A DNA stretch of 64,000 nt from a virus, in IMG/VR virus record IMGVR_UViG_3300034418_007243, positions 45,875 through 109,874 of that record; one strand, given 5' to 3'. Within the stretch, counting starts at the first letter, position 1. Each line of letters starts with the position of its first letter. A model generated the notes under the pieces. That model was given only the letters and a program-made list of their open reading frames with translations. It was not told the DNA's origin and did no database searches. A program made the position numbers and the translations under genes. Below, one piece after another: positions 15,501 through 46,738 of this stretch.

Positions 15501-17679
15501 TAAAAATGAAATGCTTCAAGAGCTGCATAAATTAGGAATGTTCTTTTCTTTAGAAGAGCTAGAAAATTTAGAACAACAAATGAAAGATGGTGTTCTTACT
15601 TTAGAAAGCTTTCCTAAAACATTTTATTATACAAATGTAGATACTGTAGAAGATGAAAAGCTTTCAAGTCTTCAAGTACAAAGAAATACAGAGGACTATC
15701 AAAAAGCTATTGCGCTAGTTAAAAAATATTTTCCTCACATAACTGGAATTCCTATAGAGCAAGAAACTATAGTTGATCCTTACTCAGCTTCAGTAAGATT
15801 AAAGCTTAAAGATGATAATAGAACTTTTGAAGATTTAGCAAAACAATTTGGTTTTGAAAATAAAGAAAAGGTTCCTTTAAAAGATGTTTTACAAGCTATT
15901 ATAGATAGCAAATATGCAACAGCTCAAGAAAAACTTTTAGCTTCTCAATTATTAACATTAGCTAGTGATACAGAAACAATTACTTTTGCTACTAATATGG
16001 CTATGCCGGGTGAATATTCTGAAAGTTTACAAACTAGAATAGATCCTAGATATTCAGCAAGTAATTATGCTAAATCAAAGAAAAAATTAAGAACAGAAGA
16101 TTTTGGTGTTTTTGAATATGAAGGAGCAGATTTACCTATAGAAGTTACCATTCTAAGATATGAATTAGAAAGAAGAGTTTTTGAATCTTTAAATACTAAT
16201 ACACAGTTTTCTGAAAATATTAATGAGTTAATGAAACTTGCTGACGCTAGGTTTACAGAAATGGCTAACGCTGATGTAAATAGTGTAAATTTTGCAATAT
16301 TTCCTTTCTTACAAGATAAAGCTGCTTTTATACAAGGAGCAATGACTAGCAGAGATTTTCAAAAATTTTTAGCATCTATTCCTTATAAAAGCACAAAAGA
16401 ACAAAAAAATAGTTGGCAAAAGTTTGTTGACTTTGTTATAGATTCAATTAAACAAACGCTAGGTGGAAAGCCCAATGGTTCTGCTCTTAATGAAGCTCTT
16501 ACTCTTATTACATCTGAGATAGGTATTATAGAAGAAGAAAAAGCTGCTCCTGTTACAGGAGAAACAAAAGCAGAAGAAGCAGTTATTATAGAAGGTCCTA
16601 TTTCTATTACAAATAATCCAAAGAGCATGTGGTCTGAGCATAAAGAATTTATGACTCAGATGGTTAATTTATTTAAACAACAGAGTAAAGAACAAGAAGC
16701 TAAAGGAGAAACACCGCTTGGTAGATTTACAGATAAAAATGGAAATAATTTATCAGATTATGCAATCTTAACAACTACTCAATTTAAAACCTGGTGGAAT
16801 AAAAACTTTAATGCTGCTAAAGATGAGGCTATAAATAACTATAATACTCAATTAAAAGAAGCAGTAGAATTAGAAGAACTTGAAAGTAAACAACAAGAAG
16901 AACCTACTCCTAAATCAGAGCAAAGAAAAAGTAGAAAGGATGATATTAAGACTAGGGAGATGGTAAACAAACTATTAGGATTACGGTTTACAAGACCTCA
17001 GATTGCAGCCATGAGTGTTGATGATGCTATTAAATTTATAGAAGATAACATTCCTTACCCTGAACTAGTAAAAAGAAGAGAAGAAAAAGAAAGATTAGAA
17101 GAATTAAAAGCTAAACAGAAAAAACAAGAAGCTGTACAAAACATTATTGATAAATTTAATAGTGTTACAAGCTTAGATGAATTAACATCAGTGTATGATA
17201 CAATTTTAAATGCTATTGAAGAAAATGATAAAAACATTGTTGAAGCACAAAAAGATGTAAATATAGAACAATTACGTTTAGAAACTCTAAAAAGATTGGC
17301 TGAAGAAGTAAGCTTTGATCAATTAAAAATTGGTAAAGCAATGCGTCTTAAAAAGAATAAAAATGCTTATATTATAGAGGTAAGTGAAGATGGTAAAACA
17401 TATACTGCTCAATATGATGATGGCACTTCCAATACTGTAGAAATTACAGAAGACAATATAAAAGATTTAGTTCAAGCATTTTATAGTGAAGCTTATGAAC
17501 AGACAAATGAAGTTGAATCAGAAATTACTGAAGATGAAGAAAAAGTTTTATCTGAATCTAAAGAAATATTTGATAATTCATCTGAAGGTATAAAAGAAGC
17601 TATGGATTCTGCTAAGAAGCTTGGCAAAGAACAAGCTAGAAAAAACTTTTTAGACGCAATAAATAATAGATGTAAATAA
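12589..17679 (+). CDS. Giant ejected protein 1, with membrane-inserting Gly/Ala segments and a degenerate zincin-like domain
   Basis: 1696 aa. VVLGATTAALGISSPITGGATAGAAAVTAA and EGLQETAQE...FASGFLMGGIAG. The TAA overlaps the next ATG (TAATG). Confidence 0.65.
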   Translation: MANGDPTQDMSITPPGLSEGPVDLSAGVPMNTLPQNLEAPRVEDYYPDRFKQDPIASLPPTPEKVNALIDNFVYNTEAKENPLKATSVLGNFHTSDYGQNQFMDRYYNHNKFSELGFSPFLDNETRYNEASSGWDEFERAFGQWTNLSGVAFSDAMSFGDSLTDRKNAEQFKRVMDIGSSTDTGKFATNLFLNSGYTMGIMAELIAEEVVLGATTAALGISSPITGGATAGAAAVTAATMAERARRGFGKITHAWDAMKNVGKTLSSFKDVNKAREYFTSAGKATGRFLNPLENTARFLKQKKSIAGIHEGTKLAKLKTATSGFAEFYKDVRNVRLAFGEGALEGGMVENEMIDHLTKDWLDKHPGQKMSDSAAQAIRNAARDAGVTTTLTNTPVILLSNKIVLDGILRPGQFSKKIIGEVIETGGKKLLFNPRKGVKDVYSILPKGFINKTWAYAKDPRLALSAAATGVIKYSSANFAEGLQETAQEIISGTNEDYYTAQYKGDVTKGGYYSFVAQNVNKQFSPEGFEIFASGFLMGGIAGPISNIAGRTMSTATELFDPNSDLRIRGFKIGEKEDGTGKYITGGFLGKALGIGTGTQEQISAAEKLDRKRKDALDDVVNTLNEFYDINKKQYLNPELENLLSQKQLNSLMQKAQEEGDVKAYNDFKDTSGFKHVITALKYGRLGTHIQQLKELKNLTEEEIKQQYGISKTKFDASIDNAVERAERIQYRYDKAKELFPNPYNPQNYRGNEAFLMLIGEKAWNDAVEEFIFNQDSFDNAVKRTEKILSKAKDKAKLKNTSFSKFEALFSLSKTQAEINTLKQEIEALEESGVKKTDPKLRSLKKQKEYLERFADAMEQTKIERAESKTESITPKTKKKAERAFKLYVNLLAVESGDFVANEDLTDVFEDLLDYAALSERKQKAMDAANLLTNPQAFFERVERNKEINSKIFANKKAEIKESLEQYLKAMDKNEMLQELHKLGMFFSLEELENLEQQMKDGVLTLESFPKTFYYTNVDTVEDEKLSSLQVQRNTEDYQKAIALVKKYFPHITGIPIEQETIVDPYSASVRLKLKDDNRTFEDLAKQFGFENKEKVPLKDVLQAIIDSKYATAQEKLLASQLLTLASDTETITFATNMAMPGEYSESLQTRIDPRYSASNYAKSKKKLRTEDFGVFEYEGADLPIEVTILRYELERRVFESLNTNTQFSENINELMKLADARFTEMANADVNSVNFAIFPFLQDKAAFIQGAMTSRDFQKFLASIPYKSTKEQKNSWQKFVDFVIDSIKQTLGGKPNGSALNEALTLITSEIGIIEEEKAAPVTGETKAEEAVIIEGPISITNNPKSMWSEHKEFMTQMVNLFKQQSKEQEAKGETPLGRFTDKNGNNLSDYAILTTTQFKTWWNKNFNAAKDEAINNYNTQLKEAVELEELESKQQEEPTPKSEQRKSRKDDIKTREMVNKLLGLRFTRPQIAAMSVDDAIKFIEDNIPYPELVKRREEKERLEELKAKQKKQEAVQNIIDKFNSVTSLDELTSVYDTILNAIEENDKNIVEAQKDVNIEQLRLETLKRLAEEVSFDQLKIGKAMRLKKNKNAYIIEVSEDGKTYTAQYDDGTSNTVEITEDNIKDLVQAFYSEAYEQTNEVESEITEDEEKVLSESKEIFDNSSEGIKEAMDSAKKLGKEQARKNFLDAINNRCK

Positions 17680-20600
17680 TGAGATGTCCACTTAATCCAG
17701 ATATAGATTTACAAGCATTTAGAGTAGCTGTATTTGCAGATATGTATGATATGGCAGAAAGCCCTGAAGCTTTTGATGTTGATCAATACATGCAAGAAAT
17801 GTATGAATTAGTTTTTGAAAACACTAAAGATCCTGCATTAGCTCTAGATTATGCGCGTTTTATACCTGAAACTACTCTTAGTCTTTTAAATACAGATAAA
17901 AAACTTAGTGGCAAATTAATGAATGAGAAAGGTTTAAACCTAAATTCTCTAATGCAAAAAGTTATTGATATAAGTAACTATAATAAAGATCAATTAAAAG
18001 TTCTTAATAATCAGTTAGCTGGTAAAGTATCTTTAAAAGATACAGCAAAAAAAGGAAAAGAAGTTGCAAAGCGTAAAAACCAAGAAAAGAAAAATGAAAA
18101 TCAGTTATCACTATTTGATCCTGAAATAATAGAAGAAGCAGCTAAAGAAGAACCTTTACCTACATTAACACCTTCTTTGTCACCAACACTTGTTGAGGAA
18201 GCAAAAGGTATATTAGATGCACAAGGTTCTGATGAAATGATTTATCCTCTTACAGCTTTTGCAACAAGAAATGTTGATAGACCAACAAAACATTCAAAGT
18301 TTATATCTGCTGTTCAAAAACAATTGCTAAGATTATTTAAAGAAAATAAAACAAATAATATTTTTTTAGCAGCTGTACCTACTAGTGAAATTATAGCAAA
18401 TCTTGAAAATAAAGATAGTGTTTACTATAATTTTTTCAGAAGTATGGATGCTGCAGAACAACAAAGTTTTATAGAAAATGATAATGGTTTAGGTGTTATA
18501 TTAGTTGTAACAGATCAAGCAGGTCTACCTATAACATTTAATGATCAAGGATTGCAGTCTAAAGAAGACTTATCTTCCCCAGCTTTTCTATTTTTAAATA
18601 GTCCAAAGTTTGATACTAAAGGACAAATTAAACTTAGTGAAAATGATATTGCAGCAATTGAAGAAATAAAACAAGTTTACAAAAAACATAATCAACCAGA
18701 GCTTGCAAAAAAAGCTGAACAGTTTTATATAGAACAGCTTAAGTCTATTAATAAAATTAGAGAATATGTTAGAGCTAACCCTAAAGAATCTGTTAAGTTT
18801 ACAATTAACGGAGGATTTTTAGGAGCTTATCAAAAGTCTTCTATAAAAAATAAACAACCTCTTGCTGGTTTAGAAGAGACTATAAATTTACAAAGAGGAA
18901 AGTATAATAGCATGTATTTTACTTCATCAGATTTGGGAGGTAAAACTATAGTGCTTGAAAGACCTACTTTGTCTGAGGCTGATATGTTAGAAGATATACT
19001 TAGTCTTTTAGTGGATGATATAACTTTAAATGGTAAACCTATATCTTCTACTGAGCGTAAGAATTTATTCTTCCAATTTTATTATAGCAAAAAAGAAACA
19101 GTTCAGCTTGCATCAGAAAATGGAAAAGCTGTTTTGTATTTTAAATATAAAGCTATTCAACTTGATCAATTAAATGATCAACAAAAACAAACTTTAAAAG
19201 AAGAACTTAGAAATTATTTTACAGAAATAAATGATAAAGGTTATCCTGAACAACATACTTATTTAAAAAGTTCTCCGCAAAGTGCAAATAAACAAATTAG
19301 TGATATCAGTATTGAAAACGGAGTTCTTACATTAACTAATAAACCCTATGAACAGTTTGTTAAAGAAAAGTTTTATAGCCTATATAAAGTAGAAAATGGA
19401 AGATTTGCTACATCAAATCCATATATCACATTTGAATTAGCACCTGAAAGTGAAGGTCAAGTTTTTTTAGAAAATAAAAAAACACAAGAAGAATTAATAA
19501 ATGAATTATTAACTGTTGCAGAAGAAATTGAAGAAATTCAAAATAGAATAGATGAACGTCTTTCTATAAAAAAAGATACTCAAAAATCAAGCATTAAAGA
19601 ACAAGGAAAGTTGTTTAGAATTTTTGAAAAAGCTTTTTATGAAGGAAATAATAAAAGACATAATGATATATCTAATGAACAACTTCAACAACTATCTCCA
19701 GAAACAAAAGCTTATTTAATAGACTTATATGAAAGAGCAAAACCTTTTAATGAAGAATATCAAAGAATAGGTAAAGTAAGAGATGTTCAAACCAACAAAG
19801 AAATAATAACAGATGAAGATAAAATAAGATATATAACAGCAAATCATTTTGGTGGTTTTGGTAGAGCTGCTAGGTTAGGTTCTGCTGCTGATTATGTGTT
19901 TAGGCAAGACCCTAAGTATAAAGATTTAATCTTTGCTATTCCATCTCAAGATGTTTTAAATAATATAAATAAGGTTTTCAATGCGAAGCTTACAAGTGAA
20001 GAGTTAAATATTGGCAGTGTAAAAGAAGAACAAGTAAAAGAAGAACCTAAAAAACCAACTCCTTCTTATTCATCAAGATTAGCAGATTTTGACACAAAGT
20101 TAGATAAAACACTTAAAGTAAAAGGTTTAGATGTAAAAGCAACAAAACAACAAATAAAAGAAGCTAAAAAGTGGTATGAAAAAAGTGCTATAAGTCAATT
20201 TTTTAAGTTTGAAGAAATTTTTGATATGGTTAATACTGATGATGGTTCAGCTGTAGCAAGATGGACATTAGCAGGTATTACACTTTACAAAGGTTCTGAT
20301 TACTCTGATTTATATCATGAGGCTTGGCATGCTTTTACACAGACATTCATGAATTCTTTACAAAGACAAGAATTATATGAAAAATTAAAAACTAAATCAG
20401 GAACTTTTACAGACCATCTTGGTCAAACAGTAACGTTTAAAGATGCTAGTGATTTACAATTAGAAGAACATCTTGCAGAACAGTTTAGAGAGTATATGCT
20501 GAATCCTTCTAGTAAGAAAATTACTAAAGAAGAAAAGTCTTTATTTAGAAGAGTTTTACAAGCTCTTAGAAAATTATTTGGTGATAGAGAACTTGATTTA

Positions 20601-23600
20601 GAAATTACAAACTTAGAAGCTGATTTATTTGTTCAGGATATCTTTGAAAAGCTCCGTATTGGTAAATTATATGAATATACTTTTGATATAGAAAATTTTG
20701 CTTTTCCCTCTTTGGATAAAGGAGGAGTTAAAGCATTGCAAGGAAGTACTGGAGTTCAACAATTAAACTATAACAATACTATGAAAATGGTTGGTGTTAT
20801 AGATTCTCTTATTTCAGAATGGATAGATTTAAAAAATGCTGCTTTAAATAGAGATCAAATAGATGCTTTATTTGATATTAATGATGAAATAGATAAAGCT
20901 GGTGAAAATATTAAACGTATTGAAGAGTTAGAAAAACAAAAAGAAGAACTTCTAACACTAGCTAGACAACAAATAAAAGCTACATATAAATATACTTCTG
21001 CAGTAACTAAAGATCCAAATGCGCTTTTAGCTGCTTATAATCATGCAGCTTATAGAATAGCAAGAATTATAAGTAATAAACAAGCTCTTTATGCAGCAAC
21101 AGAAAACATTGTAGAAAAAGAAAAATTAAAAAAACAATTAGATCTTCTAGAATGGTCACTAAAAAACTTTGGTAATTTAGAAAACATTAAACATGTAACT
21201 AACAGGCCTGGTGAAAATAGTAGAGGTCTTATTTCTATGCATATAGAAAGATCTGCTACGTTTTTTAATCAAGATGTTAAAGTTTCTCTTGATTTTGAAA
21301 ATGTAACTGAAGAACAACTTTTACAAGGAAAGTTATTTGAAAAAACAGGCAATGACTTATCTATGGTAGAAATTGCTAAGCCTGAAGTTATATTCTTTCT
21401 AAAGCAATTATATTCTTATAACAAAGAAGGTTTAGTTGAAAGAGATGATTTTGGTTTACCTAAACAAGCTGATTTTGGTCAAACCTGGAATAAACTTGCA
21501 AGGCTTTTAGTAAATACGCCTAACATTGATCAGATGTATCTAAAGCTACAAGCAGCATCTGTAAAAGATCCTCAGATAAAACAATTACTAAGTAAACTAG
21601 GAAGAACTAACACTGACTCTAATTTAACTCAAAGTTTAATAAGTAATTTCTTTAATACTTTTGGCATGGCTAATGTGCCTCTAATACAAACTACTATTAG
21701 AAAAGTTACTAAACAAAATCCAGATGGAACAACATCAACACAGACTATAGCTAGTACAGGTAGAGCTTTTAATTCAAACAATAAAATAGCTAAAGATTGG
21801 GAAAGACAATTTAAAGAACCCAGTCATAAAAGCAAATATATAAAGAGAGATGAAAAAGGTAGTTACTTAGATGTTGATGCCTTCTTAAATGATTACAATT
21901 ATGCAAAAGCTAAAGGTAACCTTTGGCAGTTTTATAATGATTTAGGTATTCTATTATCTGATAATGAAGATTTAAAAACAGAACTGCAAGATCCTAACAA
22001 TAAAAAACTTTACTCAGATAAAGTAAGTTTTATTTTTACAACTCTAAAGAAAAACTATCAAGAAAAAAATAAAAGATTAGCTGATTTAAATGAATTAGCT
22101 AAATCTGAAAGTGTTATCTATAATAATCTTATAAATTTAGAATCTAAGTATTCTAATGTGTTTACAGATTTTATGGTTACCAATGCTGAAGGTAATGCTC
22201 AGTTTGAACACACACTTAATAATACTATTACTATGATGGTTAATGGTATTAATAATGTAGAAAATTATTTGGATATATTAGCTATACCACATTTAGCTCA
22301 TCTAAATGTTGATTTAAATCCTTTTGCTGAATCTTCTATGTGGTTAAAAAGCATGTTTAATTTAGAAGGTACAGCAGATACAAATCCTAAGTATGGTGAA
22401 AGAAGAAAAGATACTTATGGTAATGATATAAAATTAGAAGTTGTAAACTTAAGTGGTATTATAACTCTTGAAGGAGAAGAAAAAACTCAAGAAGGTATAG
22501 CTAGTGCTAGAGCAGATGAATTTACTAAGTTTATTCTTGATATGCATTTAGGTTATGATAATAGCTTTGAATTAATGCGTCATGCTGATAAATCAACTTC
22601 TTATGGTATTAGATTAACTGGTGAAACTTTAGGAAGCAAAAGTAGAAGAGATTCTTATTTATCTCCTCAAACATTTAAAAAAGATAATGTTCAAGTAGCT
22701 TTTGATATTAAAAATAGAATTGTTCCTTATTTAATAGCGGAACTTAAAAGAATGAGAATAGCTAGAACAGCTCTCAAAGATAATATAAAAGATTTTGATT
22801 TTGCTTATTTAGAAAGAGGTAAAGACTTTGTAATATTTTCAGGTTATCTAAGTGCAGATACTCAAGCTTTGTTAGAAAAAGAAATTGTAAAAAATGAATC
22901 TCTAGCTTTAGAAGATTTTGCAGAAGCTATTAGTAATGATATATTTGAAAAGGAAATATTAAAAGATACTAGATCTTATTTTAATAAACAGTATGTTAAA
23001 GTAGATAAACTTTTTAAAGCAACAGATGAATTTATCTCAGATAATATTGTTAAAAACTTTATTGGTAAAAGTAATATAACTAAAGACGAAGCTAAAAAAG
23101 CTATATTACAATCACAAATAGTCAATTCTTTTATAAATAATTTAGAGAGCATGTCTTTTATATACGGAGACATTGCTCAGTATAAATTAGACAAAGAAGA
23201 CTTTCACAAACGTAATGCTGGTGCTGGTTCAACAGGTAAATTATTCCGTACAGATAAAGGTATGCAAGATTTTATTAACGGAAGAATAAATCAAACTTAT
23301 GCTGCTAAATTAAAAAATGAACTAGGTCTTGCAAGTTTAAGAACTTATGATGGCACATTTAATACAGCTGTTATATCAGATAATAAAATACCTAGTGTTT
23401 ATGCAGAACTAAGACAATTAGGAGAAGCATATAATGAAATGGAAGAAGCTGATGGTCAAGGTATTATTGCTTTTGATTCATATAGAACTTTAAAAATAGC
23501 AGAAGGTTCTTGGCTTCCAGAACAAGAAGCTTTATATCAAGATATTATAAATGAAAGAGAAATAGACGAAACTAAAATTCAATACTATTTTCCTGCATAT

Positions 23601-26600
23601 AAAACACAATACTGGGGACCTTTAAAAACAGATTTAGAAAGAATTGGATTACCTGTAACAGCTTTTCATAAATTTTCTTTATATCCAGCAATACCTAATG
23701 TTATTAAAGGTAAAAACATGGAGATTCTTCATAAAAGAATGATTCAAGAAGGTATTGATTATGTAGTATTTAAATCAGGTTCTAAGGTAGGTACTGTAAC
23801 AGAAACTCAAAGCGGTACAAAACAAGTTTATAAAAAAGATTCAAGAGAGCTTGTCTTTGATAACAATTATGATCCTAGTAAAGATAAACCTTTCTTTACT
23901 AAAAATGTGATCTTTTTAGAGTACTTAAAAAATCAATTAGAAATAAATGATAAAGCTAAAGGTCAAACAATTTTCTCTACTCAGTTAAGAAAATTAGTTA
24001 TAGATGGTCTTATGGAGTTTGGTGTACCTGTTGATTATAAAACAAATATAAAAGATCCAGAAAAAAGAATTAAAGCTTGGGAAAATGAAAAGAATAAAGA
24101 AGATAGCTCTCCTTATTATAAATTAATTAGAAATTATGAGCAAACTATTGAAGCTTTAACAAAGCTTGAAAAAGATAAACTTCTTAAAGAATTAAATTGG
24201 ACAGAAAATGAAGATGGTACTTTATCTGGTGATAAAAAGAAACTAATAGACTTTGTTGTTAGAGAATTATCTAGAAAAGAATTAGGAGAACATGAGTTAG
24301 AATATTTACTTAAGGGAGGAGATCTTTCTTTATCTCTTAATGCTGCTGACGTAGAAAAAATGCTAAATGCTATAGTTGTTAAAAAACTAGTAAAGCAAAA
24401 AGTAAATGGAGAAGCTTTAATTCAGGTTGCTAATACCTTTATGGAAGATGCAGTAAAAGCTAAAGGTTTAAAGTTTAAAAATCCTACTAAAAAACAAATT
24501 GAAGAGTTTGGGTCTAATGATCTACCTTTTTATACTAAAAATAAAGATGGGTCTACAAATGCTATGAAAGTTAAGGTAGCATTACAGAATGACTTTAAAA
24601 ACTTACTCTTTTTAAAACATAATGATGGGCAAGAAATAGGTAGTATAGAGAGACTTAATGAAATGATTAAAGATGAAGAGTGGTTAAATAAAGGTGATCA
24701 TAGAAAGATGATTACTATGACTGCTGTTCGTATTCCTGTTCAGGGTCTTAACTCTATGGAGTTTATGGAAGTTTATGAGTTTTTACCTGCTTCTGCAAGC
24801 GGTACTATTATACTTCCCTCAGAGATTGTAGCTAAGTCTGGTGCTGACTTTGATATAGATAAGTTAACAGTTATGATGCCTAATATTAAGGCTAAAGTAA
24901 CAAAAGAAAATAAAGATAAAATCTTTTGGAAAGAGTTAGCTCAAGAGTTTCCTGATTTAGATTTTAGTTATAATAATGTGCAAATGATATTTGACGCATT
25001 AAAATCTCCAGAAACATACAAATTTTTAAATGAAGAAGATATAGCTGTAGCAAATGCTATTAAATCAAAAGCAAATGTAGTAACAGCTGAATATTCTACA
25101 GGTGATAATAAATCAGGTCTTGAAAATAAATTATTAGAAAGCATTGTATCTATACTTTCTTTACCTGTTAACCGTGAAGCTTTACTTACACCAAATAGCA
25201 CAGCTCTATTTACAGAAGGTAAAAATGAAGGAGATAAATCATTGGTTGATGCTTTAGCAAAAGATGAAGAGTATAATGGAACTACTACTTTTGAAATTGC
25301 ATATAATTTAAAGAAACACCAGGAAAATAGTATTGGTAAAGCAGCTCTTGGTTTGGGTGCTGTAGATAATACCTATAATACTTTAATGAATAGAGTTGGT
25401 GCTTATCTTAATAAAGAAGTAGGTTCTACAGAAGAAGAATTTATTCAATCAATATTTGGTAAAATTCCTGAAAGTGAACAAAAATATTACCAGGCTGTAA
25501 GAAAAAACTTTAGAAGACAAAAAATATTTTTGCCTCATAATACAATTGATGGCAATATATCTTTATCACATTCTACTAGTAAAGGAAGTAATCAATCTAT
25601 CTCAGGTGTAATTAATCAAATGATTAATGGATGGGTAGATGTTGCTAGAGGAGCTTGGATTTTTAATGTACAAGGAAATAAAGAAGTAGCACCTACACTT
25701 TTATTTATGATTCAAGCAGGTGTTCCAGTTGATACAGCTGTATATTTTGTGTCTAATCCATTAGTAAAAGAATATGTAAATCAGATTAGAAAAGCTCAAA
25801 GTCCTTTTGCTGAGTATATGAATATGGATCTTGAGAACCCTAATGCTTTTAAAGCAGCAGCTTTAAGAAATATTTTTACTAATCCTGAGTTTGGTTTTAG
25901 ATTGCCTTATAAGATGAACGGGGTTTTTCAAAAGGAAACTGATATGTCTAATATTAACCCTATGCTAAATCAGATGAATATTAGTCGTTTAGCTAGAGTG
26001 TTAGCTGTTCAAAATGTCAACAAACAATTCAATACTGAAACATTAAAAGAAAGAGCTGAAAATTATAAAGAAGGTGATCCTATTACTGAAGCTGACAGAG
26101 ATGCTTTCTTACACTTTTTGGAGTTAGAAGAAATGGGTAAAGGGGTAAGAGATATCAAAATGAATATGAATTTTGATACAAACCCTGATCAATCTTTATA
26201 TGCAGCAGAAGCAAGAATAAAAAGAAAAGGTTCTCTTGAATATGATAACAGATTTCCTTCATTTATAATTGAAAAATTAGAAAATGAATCTCCTATATCA
26301 GCATTTTATACGCAACCTTTTCAAATAAAATTAATAGGAGGTTTATTTCCTTTAAGAAATCATAAACGCATTAATAAGTTTATAGATGATGTAGAGCTAG
26401 ATGAAATAAAAAGAAATGGATGGAATGATAGAGAATCTTTTGCTAAAGATTTTAAAAATGAATTTATTAATTTTATTTATCAAAATGAGCTAAGAAATTT
26501 TGATGTAAGAAAACTATCTAAACCAACAACTAATACTTTTAATGGCTTTGAAATAGAAAGAGTAAATGTAGCTTCTTTAAAACATGGAGCAGCTTTTAAA

Positions 26601-29600
26601 GATGGTAAACTTTTTATAAGCATGACTGATTTAGCAAGACAGTATGCAAGCATAACAAAAAAGTATAACGATCTTCCTATAAGTGAAACCTTAGCTGCAA
26701 AATTACAGAAAGATTATCAACAAACAGGATTAGCTCCTATATCTCCATTACAGTTTAGAAACTTTGAAGAATATGTAGAGTTTGTTATAGAAAGAGAAAG
26801 ATTACGTTCTGTATTATCAACTGAAAAAATAAATAATAATTTACAATATCAATTTTTATTAGAAGAGATAAAAGATTATTATGAAAATAATACTTATGGA
26901 AAAGCTAAAATAGCTAATTATTCTCCAGAAGTTAAAGAAAGATTTATTGTAAACTATGCTAAAGAAACTTTTCTAAAAAATAAAGCTTTGCAAAACATAT
27001 ATAACAATGACTATATGTTTAAAAATACAGGGCAAAATTTATTTCAAAAATCATATGCTGATAGATTTTTAGATTTAAACAACTTACGTTTTCCACAATT
27101 AAAAAATGAATTTCTTCTACTAAATTATCTTGAGTATGTAGAGTCACCTACAGGATATAGAAATTTAAAACTTAGCAATCCTAAATTAACAGCAGATCAG
27201 AAAAATGTTTTCTTTGAAAATTTAGAAGATTTAACTGATGAAAAAACTCTTAAAGAAAAGTTTCCTTCATTAGAAGACAATGAAATAAAATATATCATAG
27301 ACTTTTTTAATGAGTTTAGTCTTTATGCTTATTTACAAACCGGGTTAAATACAAAATCTTCTTTCAATTTATCTAGTATAGTAGATCCTGAAGAATTTAC
27401 TATTATAGCTGAAGAAGCTAAAGCTAAAGCTCTTAATATATTGAATTCAGAATCTATTTATTCTGAAGAGCTTTTACAAGATTTTTACAGAGTCTTTAAT
27501 AGAACTAATGGTAATAAAGGTAGAGCTGTAAAAGGTAGAGGTGTTAACTATAAAATTCAAGGTACAATCTTTACAGAAAAAGGATTAGAATATTTAAAAA
27601 TAACTCCAAAAACAAAATCTTTTGTTGAAGATGTAGAATTAATTGAAACTCAACCTATAGTACAAAGTACACGTAAAACATACTCAGGAAAAGTAACTAG
27701 CTTACAACCTAATCAAATATTTGTATTTGGTTCTAACCCGCTTGGTATTAATGGAAACCCTGCTAAAGGTACAGGTGGAGGAGCACTAGTAGCATATCAA
27801 ATTGCTGGAGTGAAGCAAGGAGAAAAAATGGATAATAAACTTTCTGATTCTGGAAAGGCTTGGGGAATAACAACGGTTACAGCTCCTGGTAAGAAAAAAA
27901 GTAAAACTCCACAGCAAATTATAGAAGGTATTAAAAAACTATATGAATATGCTAACAATAATCCTAGAATAGAAGTATTAGTAGCTGATTATTCTGGACC
28001 AAGAAATCTTAATGGTTATACAGGTCAAGAAATGGCAGATATGTTTTCTAATGCAGGACCTATACCGTCTAATATAGTATTTAATGAGAATTTTGATAAG
28101 TTAATTGCTACTCAACCTACAGTACAAAGTGTTACTACTCCTAAAAATAGATTTACAGTAAAACCAAAACAGGCTGCTGACAAGAAGGCTAAAGTTAAAG
28201 CCAAAATTGCTACTCAGTATATAGGTTTTGCTGAAGGTATTTTTGGAAGCAGTACAGCTTTATATGCAGAGCAGATTGGTCAGTATGCTAATACTGGTAA
28301 CTATAGTTCTGATGATGTAATATTTGTATCAATACCTGGTAAAAGAGGTAGTGCAGAATTGCAAAAACAAAATCAAGATAGAACCATAAAAGAAGCTATT
28401 AAAGCTGTAGAAGCAGGAGCTACTATTATTACAGATAATAAAGCTTATATTGATTCTAGCTCTTACAATACAGGAGAAAAAAGATTGTTTGCTAATATGC
28501 AAGAAAAAGGATATACTTATTCTGAAGTAACGGTAGATGGTCAAATTTTAGGTACTTGGTCTAAACCTACTCAACCACAAGACAGCAATCCTAATATAGT
28601 TAAGAATAGTAATGGATTGATTGTTATTAAAGACCAGTTAAATAATGAAGAAGGTGCAGCTATGGTAGAAAGTTTTAAACCTGTTATAGAAGAAACATCT
28701 TTTAAACAAACTGGAGGCTCTGTTTCATGGGGTTTTGGTTTACAATGGATGAGGGTAAATAGTATGTCTACTGAACAACGTAAAGGTTTAATAATAGGTA
28801 AACAACTTAACGGTAAAGAGATTACTCAAGAAATGAAAGATAAATTCATTAACGGTGCTGATGCTCAACAATTAGGTATGCCTTTATACGGATATACAAG
28901 TATAGATAAGAATGGTAATCCTCTTCCTAATATACCTACTGAAATTATAACAATGTTGGCTCAAAAAGGTATAGATATATCTGAGTATGATGCTAGTTAT
29001 AATTCTGTTTATGATAAAAAAGATGGTGGTAGTCTTATTATTCATCAGGATAATACTGAGCTAAATGAATCACCTATAATAACTATCTCTTTAGGTAGAC
29101 CTATGAAGTTTATAACTTATGAGTTAAATGATCCTAATGATTTTAACATAACTGATCCTAAAAATACAGCTTATAATATAGTAAAAAATGTAATAAGCGG
29201 GCAAGCTTTAAAAAATAAAATTATAGATAAACCTTTTAAATATGGAGAATTAACACCAGGAAATATAATGGATTATGCTAAACAGCTAGATAAAATTGAA
29301 GGTGGTGATAAATATTCACAACAAGTTTTAGATGCTCTTAAAGCTCAGTTTAAAGGAAAGGCTACTACTACAGAATATACTTTGGAGAATGGAGCTATAT
29401 TAGTTTTTTCAGGTAATAATAGAAATGTGTTGCATGAAATAGTATTTGATGAAGCTAGTGATAAAAAACCAATGCCAGAAGGTTTTCCTGAATTAACAGT
29501 AACTAAAAATAGATATGATAAGAAAACAGATTCTTTTCTTCCTGTACAAGTAAAAACAGATAACTATAGAGTTGTTCTTACTTTAAGAAAAGTACAAGGA

Positions 29601-30275
29601 ACTACAGTAAATAATATAGATACAGCTATGTTAGAAAATACTGTAAAAACACCAGCTGAAAGCAAAGCAACTGAAGGTAAATATCAACCTGCAAAAGATG
29701 TATTTGATATTGATAGCGCTCTTGTAATAGAAGGAATAGAGCAAAATCCTGATGTTATTTTTGTTTATGAAGGAGCAGAAACAGAAGGTCTTGGAACTGG
29801 TCAAGGTGAAGGTGCAAAACATAAAAAAATAAAAAATGTTAGCACAAACAATGTATTACCTCTTACAGTGAATAGAAATTATGCTCTTCAAAATACTTTT
29901 AAAGATGTTAAAGATGAAGCTGGTAATATGGTTATAGATCCTAAACTTAAAGAACTAATAGATAATGATATACAAACACTATTAGCTTATGGTGATAGAC
30001 CTATCAGATTTAGTAGTAAAGGTTATGGTAAAGAGTTAATTAAACAAGATAAAAAAAGAAATACTCCTATGCCTGCACCACAAGCTTTTATATATTTGTC
30101 AGAGCAATTACTAGAAAAATTTGGTTATATTAATCCTGGCTTTTTAAGTTTAGATATGTCTGGAAATAAACCAGGTATTGAAGCAGTACAAGAAGCTCAA
30201 GAAATATCTGATGCAGAAATAAAAGAATTGAATAGAGAAGCTGTATTAGATTTAATTAAACTGTGTAAATCATAA
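17679..30275 (+). CDS. Virion RNA polymerase polyprotein (crAss/phi14:2 gp66-like two-barrel RNAP) with N-terminal zincin and C-terminal macro-like, unknown and AlkB-like domains
   Basis: 4198 aa. RIPVQGLNS (24729) and KSGADFDIDKL (DFDID at 24846-24860). Also DFHKRNAG, ADGQG, HKFSLYP and STQLRKL. HEAWH (20316) with EEHLAE. HQD...H...RxxLTxR in the AlkB part. Confidence 0.9.
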   Translation: MRCPLNPDIDLQAFRVAVFADMYDMAESPEAFDVDQYMQEMYELVFENTKDPALALDYARFIPETTLSLLNTDKKLSGKLMNEKGLNLNSLMQKVIDISNYNKDQLKVLNNQLAGKVSLKDTAKKGKEVAKRKNQEKKNENQLSLFDPEIIEEAAKEEPLPTLTPSLSPTLVEEAKGILDAQGSDEMIYPLTAFATRNVDRPTKHSKFISAVQKQLLRLFKENKTNNIFLAAVPTSEIIANLENKDSVYYNFFRSMDAAEQQSFIENDNGLGVILVVTDQAGLPITFNDQGLQSKEDLSSPAFLFLNSPKFDTKGQIKLSENDIAAIEEIKQVYKKHNQPELAKKAEQFYIEQLKSINKIREYVRANPKESVKFTINGGFLGAYQKSSIKNKQPLAGLEETINLQRGKYNSMYFTSSDLGGKTIVLERPTLSEADMLEDILSLLVDDITLNGKPISSTERKNLFFQFYYSKKETVQLASENGKAVLYFKYKAIQLDQLNDQQKQTLKEELRNYFTEINDKGYPEQHTYLKSSPQSANKQISDISIENGVLTLTNKPYEQFVKEKFYSLYKVENGRFATSNPYITFELAPESEGQVFLENKKTQEELINELLTVAEEIEEIQNRIDERLSIKKDTQKSSIKEQGKLFRIFEKAFYEGNNKRHNDISNEQLQQLSPETKAYLIDLYERAKPFNEEYQRIGKVRDVQTNKEIITDEDKIRYITANHFGGFGRAARLGSAADYVFRQDPKYKDLIFAIPSQDVLNNINKVFNAKLTSEELNIGSVKEEQVKEEPKKPTPSYSSRLADFDTKLDKTLKVKGLDVKATKQQIKEAKKWYEKSAISQFFKFEEIFDMVNTDDGSAVARWTLAGITLYKGSDYSDLYHEAWHAFTQTFMNSLQRQELYEKLKTKSGTFTDHLGQTVTFKDASDLQLEEHLAEQFREYMLNPSSKKITKEEKSLFRRVLQALRKLFGDRELDLEITNLEADLFVQDIFEKLRIGKLYEYTFDIENFAFPSLDKGGVKALQGSTGVQQLNYNNTMKMVGVIDSLISEWIDLKNAALNRDQIDALFDINDEIDKAGENIKRIEELEKQKEELLTLARQQIKATYKYTSAVTKDPNALLAAYNHAAYRIARIISNKQALYAATENIVEKEKLKKQLDLLEWSLKNFGNLENIKHVTNRPGENSRGLISMHIERSATFFNQDVKVSLDFENVTEEQLLQGKLFEKTGNDLSMVEIAKPEVIFFLKQLYSYNKEGLVERDDFGLPKQADFGQTWNKLARLLVNTPNIDQMYLKLQAASVKDPQIKQLLSKLGRTNTDSNLTQSLISNFFNTFGMANVPLIQTTIRKVTKQNPDGTTSTQTIASTGRAFNSNNKIAKDWERQFKEPSHKSKYIKRDEKGSYLDVDAFLNDYNYAKAKGNLWQFYNDLGILLSDNEDLKTELQDPNNKKLYSDKVSFIFTTLKKNYQEKNKRLADLNELAKSESVIYNNLINLESKYSNVFTDFMVTNAEGNAQFEHTLNNTITMMVNGINNVENYLDILAIPHLAHLNVDLNPFAESSMWLKSMFNLEGTADTNPKYGERRKDTYGNDIKLEVVNLSGIITLEGEEKTQEGIASARADEFTKFILDMHLGYDNSFELMRHADKSTSYGIRLTGETLGSKSRRDSYLSPQTFKKDNVQVAFDIKNRIVPYLIAELKRMRIARTALKDNIKDFDFAYLERGKDFVIFSGYLSADTQALLEKEIVKNESLALEDFAEAISNDIFEKEILKDTRSYFNKQYVKVDKLFKATDEFISDNIVKNFIGKSNITKDEAKKAILQSQIVNSFINNLESMSFIYGDIAQYKLDKEDFHKRNAGAGSTGKLFRTDKGMQDFINGRINQTYAAKLKNELGLASLRTYDGTFNTAVISDNKIPSVYAELRQLGEAYNEMEEADGQGIIAFDSYRTLKIAEGSWLPEQEALYQDIINEREIDETKIQYYFPAYKTQYWGPLKTDLERIGLPVTAFHKFSLYPAIPNVIKGKNMEILHKRMIQEGIDYVVFKSGSKVGTVTETQSGTKQVYKKDSRELVFDNNYDPSKDKPFFTKNVIFLEYLKNQLEINDKAKGQTIFSTQLRKLVIDGLMEFGVPVDYKTNIKDPEKRIKAWENEKNKEDSSPYYKLIRNYEQTIEALTKLEKDKLLKELNWTENEDGTLSGDKKKLIDFVVRELSRKELGEHELEYLLKGGDLSLSLNAADVEKMLNAIVVKKLVKQKVNGEALIQVANTFMEDAVKAKGLKFKNPTKKQIEEFGSNDLPFYTKNKDGSTNAMKVKVALQNDFKNLLFLKHNDGQEIGSIERLNEMIKDEEWLNKGDHRKMITMTAVRIPVQGLNSMEFMEVYEFLPASASGTIILPSEIVAKSGADFDIDKLTVMMPNIKAKVTKENKDKIFWKELAQEFPDLDFSYNNVQMIFDALKSPETYKFLNEEDIAVANAIKSKANVVTAEYSTGDNKSGLENKLLESIVSILSLPVNREALLTPNSTALFTEGKNEGDKSLVDALAKDEEYNGTTTFEIAYNLKKHQENSIGKAALGLGAVDNTYNTLMNRVGAYLNKEVGSTEEEFIQSIFGKIPESEQKYYQAVRKNFRRQKIFLPHNTIDGNISLSHSTSKGSNQSISGVINQMINGWVDVARGAWIFNVQGNKEVAPTLLFMIQAGVPVDTAVYFVSNPLVKEYVNQIRKAQSPFAEYMNMDLENPNAFKAAALRNIFTNPEFGFRLPYKMNGVFQKETDMSNINPMLNQMNISRLARVLAVQNVNKQFNTETLKERAENYKEGDPITEADRDAFLHFLELEEMGKGVRDIKMNMNFDTNPDQSLYAAEARIKRKGSLEYDNRFPSFIIEKLENESPISAFYTQPFQIKLIGGLFPLRNHKRINKFIDDVELDEIKRNGWNDRESFAKDFKNEFINFIYQNELRNFDVRKLSKPTTNTFNGFEIERVNVASLKHGAAFKDGKLFISMTDLARQYASITKKYNDLPISETLAAKLQKDYQQTGLAPISPLQFRNFEEYVEFVIERERLRSVLSTEKINNNLQYQFLLEEIKDYYENNTYGKAKIANYSPEVKERFIVNYAKETFLKNKALQNIYNNDYMFKNTGQNLFQKSYADRFLDLNNLRFPQLKNEFLLLNYLEYVESPTGYRNLKLSNPKLTADQKNVFFENLEDLTDEKTLKEKFPSLEDNEIKYIIDFFNEFSLYAYLQTGLNTKSSFNLSSIVDPEEFTIIAEEAKAKALNILNSESIYSEELLQDFYRVFNRTNGNKGRAVKGRGVNYKIQGTIFTEKGLEYLKITPKTKSFVEDVELIETQPIVQSTRKTYSGKVTSLQPNQIFVFGSNPLGINGNPAKGTGGGALVAYQIAGVKQGEKMDNKLSDSGKAWGITTVTAPGKKKSKTPQQIIEGIKKLYEYANNNPRIEVLVADYSGPRNLNGYTGQEMADMFSNAGPIPSNIVFNENFDKLIATQPTVQSVTTPKNRFTVKPKQAADKKAKVKAKIATQYIGFAEGIFGSSTALYAEQIGQYANTGNYSSDDVIFVSIPGKRGSAELQKQNQDRTIKEAIKAVEAGATIITDNKAYIDSSSYNTGEKRLFANMQEKGYTYSEVTVDGQILGTWSKPTQPQDSNPNIVKNSNGLIVIKDQLNNEEGAAMVESFKPVIEETSFKQTGGSVSWGFGLQWMRVNSMSTEQRKGLIIGKQLNGKEITQEMKDKFINGADAQQLGMPLYGYTSIDKNGNPLPNIPTEIITMLAQKGIDISEYDASYNSVYDKKDGGSLIIHQDNTELNESPIITISLGRPMKFITYELNDPNDFNITDPKNTAYNIVKNVISGQALKNKIIDKPFKYGELTPGNIMDYAKQLDKIEGGDKYSQQVLDALKAQFKGKATTTEYTLENGAILVFSGNNRNVLHEIVFDEASDKKPMPEGFPELTVTKNRYDKKTDSFLPVQVKTDNYRVVLTLRKVQGTTVNNIDTAMLENTVKTPAESKATEGKYQPAKDVFDIDSALVIEGIEQNPDVIFVYEGAETEGLGTGQGEGAKHKKIKNVSTNNVLPLTVNRNYALQNTFKDVKDEAGNMVIDPKLKELIDNDIQTLLAYGDRPIRFSSKGYGKELIKQDKKRNTPMPAPQAFIYLSEQLLEKFGYINPGFLSLDMSGNKPGIEAVQEAQEISDAEIKELNREAVLDLIKLCKS

Positions 30276-45676: not shown

Positions 45677-46738
45677 TTATGAATCAAATTCTTCTGCTTC
45701 AATTTTTAAACAAGGACCCGGTATATAATATTGTTTTATATTAGCATTATCAAAATTAATATAATCTACAGTACATAAAGTTGTTATTGCTTGTACATTA
45801 GCTCTAGTAAACTTCTTATTGTCTTTAAGAATATTTGTTAATGTCATAAGACTCATTGATTTTACTGACTCCTTATCTAAATTAAAATAACTTAATAAAC
45901 TTTTAAAATTTACATGGTTAAACTCTTTATATTTTATAAAAGATTTTCCATATTTTTTTAATATCATTAGTATATACATAAAACTTTTTTCATAATTACT
46001 ATTAGCAAGTAATTCCATAGTCATTATTATAGAAGCATCATCCTCACTAGCACACATTAATACTAGGTCTTGATACTTTTCTTTATCTATAATAATAGAA
46101 TCTTCATTAATATACTTTAGTAATTCATCTTGTTTATATACTAAACAATTATCAGAAAGACTTTTAATTTTAGAATTTATAGGCACAATAAACAATGTTC
46201 TAGAGCCTTGAGCATATCCTTGTTTAATAGCCCATGAACCATCACTTGTATAAAGTTGCAATCCTGTTTGGACATTGCCAGAAGGATCTTTGGGTGATCT
46301 ATAATAAAACTCACTTGCTATAGAACTTTTTATGTATACATGTGAAAAATCATTAGCATCAACAAGCATTTTAAATCTTGTTTCTTTTGGATGATTTATA
46401 TAACGTAACCAATGTTTAAAGTCATCAGATTTCATTTTATAAACATCACGTTTAAACAAGTGATCATTTGTTCTAGGTATTAAATCTGCTGGTGGAATAA
46501 ATGCTATTGTAGCTTTCTTAGGTAGAATAGTAAAATTAAATTTTTCTTTAGCTTTAAACCTTGGCACTGTTGTTCCAGGAAATAAATATATTGTTTCTTC
46601 TTCTAATTTATTTCTTTCTAACTCATTTTGAATATTACAATGATGTTCAAAGTCTTCAAATAAACCACCATGTTCAATTCTTATATCTAACTGATTATGA
46701 CTTATATAATCTATGTATAAATATTTAGTTAAATTCAT
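45677..46738 (-). CDS. Hypothetical protein
   Basis: 353-aa ORF with no decisive motif. Confidence 0.6.
   Translation of the reverse strand: MNLTKYLYIDYISHNQLDIRIEHGGLFEDFEHHCNIQNELERNKLEEETIYLFPGTTVPRFKAKEKFNFTILPKKATIAFIPPADLIPRTNDHLFKRDVYKMKSDDFKHWLRYINHPKETRFKMLVDANDFSHVYIKSSIASEFYYRSPKDPSGNVQTGLQLYTSDGSWAIKQGYAQGSRTLFIVPINSKIKSLSDNCLVYKQDELLKYINEDSIIIDKEKYQDLVLMCASEDDASIIMTMELLANSNYEKSFMYILMILKKYGKSFIKYKEFNHVNFKSLLSYFNLDKESVKSMSLMTLTNILKDNKKFTRANVQAITTLCTVDYINFDNANIKQYYIPGPCLKIEAEEFDS

Follow-up and report, generated by a model that had tools for sequence, protein, structure and literature searches.

The giant gene described here lies in a 64,000-nt stretch of viral DNA (the window; positions 45,875 to 109,874 of IMG/VR record IMGVR_UViG_3300034418_007243), where a single plus-strand open reading frame (ORF) encodes a protein of 4198 amino acids (aa) that joins a predicted homolog of the virion RNA polymerase (RNAP) of crAss-like phages to a train of accessory domains separated by short linkers containing the tripeptide TQP. 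The genome is a 109,874-bp contig with overlapping ends and a G+C content of 31%, and the neighbors of the ORF are two more giant ORFs of 1696 and 1966 aa. When aa 1442-2441 were used as a tblastn query, matches were obtained to cr108_1 (E = 2e-27), to g066 of Cellulophaga phage phi14:2, annotated as "Catalytic RNA polymerase subunit" (E = 9e-16), and to the "putative RNA polymerase" of crAss001 (E = 1e-8). A phmmer search of the whole protein against PDB sequences returned no match. A DFDxD motif is among the features described for crAss-like virion RNAPs (10.1101/2020.03.07.982082), and DFDID, the sole DxDxD motif of the ORF, begins at aa 2390 and is its predicted catalytic metal site. Because of the tblastn homology and this motif, the name "virion RNAP", given to the protein in an earlier reading made from the DNA letters alone (the sequence-only reading), was retained. 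A zincin-like HExxH motif (HEAWH) was also found at aa 880 (window 20316-20330), in a region without a Pfam or PHROG match.

Domains of the polymerase tail

Behind the RNAP core, the sequence-only reading had recognized four modules, i.e., a macro-like domain, an unknown alpha/beta domain, an AlkB-like dioxygenase, and a second, degenerate macro-like domain. The first three stood up to analysis as cassettes, while the fourth proved to be a C-terminal domain conserved in all 25 relatives of the polymerase and is no cassette (Table 1). Module 1 matched NCBIfam NF049995 (A1S_2505 family phage protein) over the full profile (1-109) with 47.4 bits (cut-off 45), matched phrog_2072 with E = 8e-16, and shows an N...GGGA loop pattern. 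When its AlphaFold2 (AF2) model was compared to macro chains (VIA), 29 of these scored above Z 8 with root-mean-square deviations of 3.0-3.7 Å over 127-140 residues, and unrelated rows were well below; the best rows were alphavirus nsP3 (4gua, Z 11.0), TARG1 (2lgr, 10.8), and DarG (5m3i, 10.1). Foldseek also placed the macro family first, with a probability of 0.98-1.0 but a weak E-value (~3e-3). The assignment of module 1 as a macrodomain is thereby supported at the level of the predicted fold. Module 2 likewise fits its earlier description, since its model is a confident, compact alpha/beta fold and searches of Pfam, NCBIfam, PHROG, and Atlas gave no family match; a structural search gave no convincing match either (best Z ~5). 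The module has 112 homologous stretches, with 50-75% identity, at many positions in giant phage proteins. In a co-folded AF2 model of modules 1 and 2 (38 aligned homologs), the mean predicted local distance difference test (pLDDT) score was 87 and disorder was confined to the three linkers (residues 1-8, 161-167, and the last ten). Module 3 matched Pfam PF13532 (2OG-FeII_Oxy_2; E = 1.1e-9, 39.3 bits, gathering cut-off 31.2), and its IIHQDN and VLHEI segments align with the HxD and distal His of E. coli AlkB, in agreement with its earlier designation. Against the AlkB equivalogs PRK15401 and TIGR00568 it scored 21 and 20 bits, far under their cut-offs of 267 and 231. Judged by its sequence, module 3 is a divergent member of the AlkB superfamily with a long insert and is no AlkB ortholog.

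Relatives of the polymerase were sought with the last 630 residues of the core as query, which recovered 25 proteins (2736-4627 aa); their precomputed domains differ and include NADAR and a PIF1-type helicase. The C-terminal domain was found at the C-terminus of all 25, as well as at 50 IMG/VR loci, and its invariants are G, YLS, L, N, and a near-terminal Cys. This Cys lies a few residues before the stop (window 30204-30272; loci L045-L094; C221 of a 223-aa segment), and 33/33 aligned relatives have a conserved I(T/S)D.E motif ahead of it. In a fold search with the domain, the top Z was 5.0, for DarG/TARG1 macro folds tied with SDR (Rossmann) folds, and a Foldseek search did not recover the phi14:2 structure. 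That this fourth "module" is a paralog of module 1 was considered and rejected: an hhalign value of 96.5% came from a profile contaminated by module-1 regions that jackhmmer had recruited, and the clean profile gave a probability of 2%.

Since the last "module" is a conserved C-terminal domain, the cassettes are inserted rather than appended. The distance from the core end to this domain was determined in 40 non-redundant loci picked solely by the conserved C-terminal domain, and was <=43 aa in 26 of them and 174-929 aa in the other 14, whose payloads include superfamily 1 (SF1) helicase, NADAR, AlkB-like, and ART-PolyVal (PF18760) domains. With 26 loci near-empty and 14 filled, the junction of core and C-terminal domain is an insertion hot spot, and the ~650-residue payload of the window is one filled state of it.

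Table 1. Features of the polymerase ORF, in window coordinates. P0001 is the protein of the window and P0002 a close relative described in the text; L handles denote IMG/VR loci.
Feature	Position	Strand	Basis or remark
Giant ORF, crAss-like virion RNAP homolog (predicted) with cassette train	17679..30275	+	ORF list, translation, tblastn
DFDID, predicted catalytic metal site	24846..24860 (aa 2390-2394)	+	Motif search
Linker 1 (LIETQPIVQS), repeat copy A, left edge of allele-variable region	27639..27668	+	P0001/P0002 alignment ends at aa 3325, inside the linker; disordered in AF2 model
Module 1, A1S_2505-family domain, macrodomain fold (TARG1/DarG-like) by model	27669..28100	+	NF049995, phrog_2072, AF2, VIA
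Linker 2 (LIATQPTVQS), repeat copy B	28101..28130	+	Module 1 DNA homology to L013-L017 ends at 28119-28122; disordered in AF2 model
Module 2, compact alpha/beta domain	28131..28565	+	Model pLDDT >90
Linker 3 (PTQPQDSN) with partial repeat copy, right edge of allele-variable region	28566..28589	+	P0002, P0183, and P0184 are homologous again from aa 3631-3632
Module 3, AlkB-like 2OG-Fe(II) dioxygenase (predicted) with long insert	28590..29603	+	PF13532 and HxD...H alignment
Low-confidence spacer, AlkB-like module to C-terminal domain	29604..29738	+	pLDDT <50, residues 1-28 of model of 29604-30272
Conserved C-terminal domain of polymerase	29739..30272	+	Motif GYG...F(I/V)YLS..L...FGY.NP, near-terminal invariant Cys

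Payload alleles and module mobility

Four alleles of the tail were found among near-identical phages and compared at the protein level (P0183, P0184, and further P0001 records were drawn from the 90% clusters of P0001 and P0002; scans of viral contigs with the core and of metagenome contigs with P0002 found no relative). The allele of the window, P0001, is present on seven protein records from JGI and ENA that are 99.4-99.98% identical, and carries the macro module and alpha/beta module 2. The other three are each known from one contig: P0002 has two other modules, X1 and X2; P0184 has a macro cassette (59% identical to module 1; phrog_2072, E = 4e-26) and then X1 and X2; and P0183 has a single DprA-like module (phrog_768, E = 5e-7). 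In all four, the variable payload is followed by the AlkB-like module and the C-terminal domain, with identities of 92-95% in the core and 97-98% in the AlkB/C-terminal part. In sliding 100-aa windows, identity collapsed solely in aa 3301-3700 and was >=79% elsewhere. Outside this region, P0001 and its close relatives diverge strongly in a single patch, aa 601-640 (window 19479-19600), a Glu/Lys-rich helical stretch with a 7-aa indel and 79-81% identity in that 100-aa window.

P0002 was 95.3% identical to P0001 over aa 1-3325 and 97.2% identical over aa 3631-4198, and was unrelated between; these limits fall on the Q of the first TQP (residue 3325) and on the T of the third (residue 3631). The linkers of the P0002 type read TIQPQA, STQPQA, and TTQPQA. 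P0184 equals P0002 plus one macro cassette between IQPQA and TQSQA, and, as far as the protein sequences tell, this extra cassette was gained or lost between two direct copies of the linker. Thus, the domain set varies among phages with cores of 92-95% identity, and the expectation of the sequence-only reading that breakpoints would fall at the TQP linkers was upheld by P0001/P0002, by P0184, and by the further pairs described below. Module 3 is common to all four close alleles and absent from most distant relatives, PF13532 being present in only P0001 and P0002 of 26 relatives. A jackhmmer search with X2 (P0002 aa 3487-3668, with an HFGNPF motif) recruited adjacent pairs of 50-60-aa stretches in many giant proteins, which suggests that X2 contains or adjoins a short tandem-repeated unit.

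For one further pair, the loci L032 and L034 (IMG/VR contigs from different samples), the comparison was possible at the DNA level. These have 2 mismatches in nt 1-2895 and 5 in nt 2896-2931, and their similarity ends directly after ACTCAACCTA of the linker behind their macro cassette, beyond which L032 continues into NADAR (E = 9e-15) and L034 into a DprA-like module (E = 9e-8). From the clustering of the mismatches, the crossover is assigned to the conserved 3' portion of the macro cassette, with the linker as the end of the shared homology. The proteins P0150 and P0189 are 99% identical up to PTQLST, behind which one has a 220-aa unknown module and the other NADAR; their similarity returns at PTERKTY, where a macro cassette common to both begins. 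P0061 and P0188 diverge directly behind their copy of module 2, at its linker, although less cleanly than the other pairs.

The modules also occur in distant polymerases. With the 903-residue tail as query, an exhaustive search without profiles returned 966 matches at E <=1e-3, with modules 1, 2, and 3 at 50-85% identity in many different positions of 3000-6000-aa proteins. At 44 IMG/VR loci, the DNA of the macro cassette is 83-85% identical to the window (from 27675 or 27648 to ~28120) and that of module 2 is 75-78% identical (28143-28577), the polymerase cores being 22-38% identical in protein. The DNA homology of the modules ends in linkers, and for module 2 it ends at 28576-28577, in linker 3, in L001-L005 (see Table 1 for module 1). 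Order and site vary as well, with module 2 ahead of module 1 in L010/L013, module 2 in mid-core in L007, and the pair in window order near the N-terminus in L037. In L007 (2501-2929), the alpha/beta module and ~100 residues lie inside the core at the equivalent of P0001 aa 2293, ~100 aa before the DFDID equivalent, which implies a second permissive insertion site. In L037/L038, the macro and alpha/beta pair (aa 689-1033, 40% identical) lies between the equivalents of P0001 aa 576 and 808 and is flanked by three TTQPSTSV linkers with identical codons.

The fraction of identical codons at conserved residues was 0.64-0.72 in the modules (0.52-0.61 expected) and 0.42-0.67 in core segments (0.53-0.64 expected). 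Since the modules keep more identical codons than codon usage predicts, they share a more recent ancestry than the cores. This fraction replaced synonymous divergence (dS), which was dropped as a dating tool because Nei-Gojobori pS (0.39-0.52) was near saturation for this codon bias. A tblastn search of the complete 109,874-bp genome with all modules detected expressed copies only and no silent or orphan cassettes; since the genome holds no second module copy, the donors must be other phages.

Linker DNA and the proposed mode of cassette exchange

The 30-nt direct repeat noted around module 1 by the sequence-only reading, and a partial third copy, ctactcaacc, at 28567-28576, were both confirmed. 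The two full copies (linkers 1 and 2) are identical at 27/30 positions and are spaced by 462 nt, i.e., 154 codons and in frame. A pattern search of the window at <=3 mismatches found no copies besides these two, and 0 were expected from 100 shuffles. The residues shared by their translations are encoded by the same codon in 8/8 cases (P = 0.0028, given the codon usage of the ORF). The window has three occurrences of the 8-mer ACTCAACC (both strands), all of them at the three borders between modules, and the whole genome has four; the sole other genomic ACTCAACCT is at genome position 19551, outside the window.

In representatives at 50% identity, TQP was found within 14 residues of 16-22% of the borders of modules 1 and 2 vs 0.29% of random windows from the same proteins, a ~60-fold difference, and it also flanks NADAR, DprA-like, X1, X2, AlkB-like, and other modules. 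The codons ACT CAA CCT were used at 28/49 TQP sites (57%, 27% expected), with CCA and other variants at the rest. Among linker pairs within genes, 132/163 codons were identical at identical residues (86 expected), and all 9 nt of TQP were identical in 19/34 pairs (56%) vs 100/490 (20%) for other tripeptides of equal degeneracy. These pairs are non-independent, and we therefore give no P-value and take the effect as real. Conservation of the linker is thus not confined to the protein level.

We consider it probable (roughly 0.7) that the polymerase doubles as a polyvalent carrier whose cassettes are swapped via homology in linkers and cassette ends, constituting a changeable counter-defense kit. 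The junction between core and C-terminal domain would receive compact enzyme domains in frame, each then followed by a short, disordered linker rich in T, Q, and P. Co-infecting relatives would exchange, gain, and lose cassettes by recombination, which would use the short homology of the linker DNA (core ACTCAACCT) and the conserved ends of shared cassettes, and whose products would retain both the frame and complete domains. A cassette between direct repeats, as in the case of the 30-mer of the window, would be prone to be lost precisely and in frame. As homology with phi14:2 suggests, the payload would be packaged and would enter the cell with polymerase and DNA at the start of infection, and its enzymes would protect the incoming DNA.

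Several observations weigh against this explanation. For the sole alleles compared as DNA, L032/L034, the crossover is placed ahead of the linker, within ~36 homeologous nt formed by cassette end and linker; for this reason, micro-homology of 9-10 nt alone may not be the substrate. The breakpoints of P0002, P0183, and P0184 are known as protein only. With synonymous divergence almost saturated in the modules, the exchanges between distant phages date far back. TQP linkers are specific to one sub-lineage and are absent from most payload-carrying loci, and no TQP was found at the joints of two in-frame indels, L070/L071 (264 aa) and L069/L079 (63 aa), so that domain gain and loss are not tied to one type of linker. 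These two indels are in polymerases of other crAss-like lineages (L070 nt 845-1679 vs L071; L069 nt 480-668 vs L079). The excess of shared codons could reflect common descent of linker copies and not selection for a recombination site, and random recombination, with survival of whole-domain products alone, would likewise leave breaks at linkers.

The last two points are central to the alternative that fares best, in which TQP is a mere flexible, protease-resistant spacer selected as a peptide, recombination occurs anywhere with survival of whole-domain products, and the similarity of linker DNA is due to descent. The disorder of the linkers in the model fits such a spacer, as do the recurrence of the TQP peptide beside eight or more types of unrelated modules in proteins with <=50% identity, the lack of fixed codons (28/49 sites with ACT CAA CCT), domain shuffling without TQP in other lineages, and the upstream crossover of L032/L034. 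We nevertheless regard it as rather unlikely, considering the 9-nt identity of TQP within genes (56% vs 20% for tripeptides of equal degeneracy), the 8/8 identical codons of the repeat in the window (P = 0.003), the direct linker repeat flanking the extra cassette of P0184, and the fact that homology is lost right after ACTCAACCTA between L032 and L034, and inside the linkers for L013-L017 and L001-L005.

A second alternative, to which we assign little weight, is that TQP is a proteolytic processing site, where a phage peptidase (e.g., the protein's own HExxH domain) or a host peptidase frees the cargo; this can coexist with recombination. TQP is short, conserved, exposed, and situated exactly between domains, the HEAWH motif is at hand at aa 880, and autoproteolysis by embedded metallopeptidases has been discussed for polyvalent proteins (PMC5512222). 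However, the virion RNAP of N4 is packaged unprocessed (PMC5512222), the residues around TQP are highly variable, and recognition of a peptide does not predict excess synonymous identity. Finally, it is very improbable that the allelic differences are assembly chimeras joined at a short shared repeat, a classical kind of chimera joint, even though P0002, P0183, and P0184 each come from a single contig, since the window allele is on seven protein records from at least seven contigs of both JGI and ENA, reads and assembly k-mers are longer than the 9-30-nt repeat, the flanks on both sides are co-linear in every allele with 92-98% identity, independent lineages have the same pattern, and the mobility of modules across distant polymerases is independent of those contigs.

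The exchange of cassettes via linker and cassette-end homology might also be put in a stronger form, in which TQP linker DNA and cassette ends are a selected recombination signal and the polymerase tail is a dedicated locus of high-frequency exchange that yields combinatorial sets of injected counter-defense enzymes. This form is speculative, and we doubt it at present; if true, phages would have in the tail a counterpart to the loci of polymorphic toxins or antigenic variation, with the cassette store spread over the phage population.

Predicted role of the payload and comparison with known systems

Since the payload enzymes are of kinds that reverse DNA base modification or damage (macro, NADAR, AlkB, and DprA-like domains, and SF1 helicases), counter-defense is their most likely role. 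AlkB enzymes remove alkyl lesions. Both NADAR domains and macrodomains of the DarG type strip the ADP-ribose made by DarT from DNA, and phage NADARs neutralize DarTG1 (PMC11543638; PMC11257639). Injected proteins act before phage gene expression and would therefore be a first line against defenses that hit incoming DNA. This payload is polymorphic among phages otherwise 92-98% identical, and its exchange follows a grammar of domain, linker, domain. The alleles (macro, NADAR, DprA-like, and unknown modules) form a natural series for testing against DarTG1 and DarTG2, and the widespread alpha/beta module 2 becomes a candidate counter-defense enzyme. The linker may serve as a sequence handle for the borders of cargo domains in thousands of giant phage proteins left blank by family databases, and whether short-homology recombination shapes protein architecture can be put to the test at this locus.

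The nearest counterpart of the polymerase itself is gp66 of phi14:2, which has ~2180 aa, making the protein of the window about twice as long; the two share a homologous core by tblastn, a DFDxD-type motif, and a place in a block of giant genes. Unlike crAss-like virion RNAPs at large, the protein of the window has ~650 aa of accessory enzymes ahead of its C-terminal domain, and 26/40 sampled relatives are without any. Large multidomain proteins in the transcription block are mentioned in the crAss literature, with nothing further on them (PMC7886860; Yutin et al., 2021). As for the cargo, module 1 has a predicted macro fold with DarG and TARG1 among its top matches and alleles at the same site carry NADAR, which recalls AdfN, a NADAR protein among the free-standing anti-DarT enzymes of phages (PMC11257639), and the macro and NADAR antitoxins of the DarG kind (PMC11543638). 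The likeness is one of fold and sequence, and the domains are here fused to a polymerase that is probably packaged, whereas those proteins are separate early genes.

In its mode of exchange, the tail resembles the polymorphic toxins CdiA and Rhs (Poole et al., 2011; PMC3150448), in which a short conserved motif (VENN in CdiA, here TQP) also marks the junction of constant and exchangeable parts, the frame is kept, and close strains are polymorphic as in an arms race. The differences are that the genome studied here has no orphan cassettes and no immunity genes, that several cassettes stand in series, each with its linker, and that the cargo is probably made up of protective enzymes, not toxins. 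The tail would thus work alike without being a member of that class.

The closest class is that of the polyvalent proteins, which include the N4 virion RNAP (Iyer et al., 2017; PMC5512222), i.e., giant, probably virion-delivered proteins with serial enzymatic domains for early conflict with the host. Here, an RNAP core, a macro-fold domain, an unknown alpha/beta domain, and an AlkB-like domain are combined in one 4198-aa ORF; domain sets vary between relatives, as they do in polyvalent proteins, and ART-PolyVal (PF18760), NADAR, and helicase domains occur in the relatives. Of an embedded zincin-like metallopeptidase (MPTase), a further trait of the class, the protein shows the HEAWH motif only, in a region that no Pfam or PHROG model matched. 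Neither crAss-like phages nor linkers are mentioned in that study (0 occurrences each; PMC5512222), and our literature search returned no paper linking crAss-like phages with polyvalent proteins or with linker-bounded cassettes. Compared to polyvalent proteins as described there, what is new here is a defined hot spot between core and C-terminal domain, a linker shared at the DNA level, and an allelic series, among near-identical phages, that is bordered by this linker.

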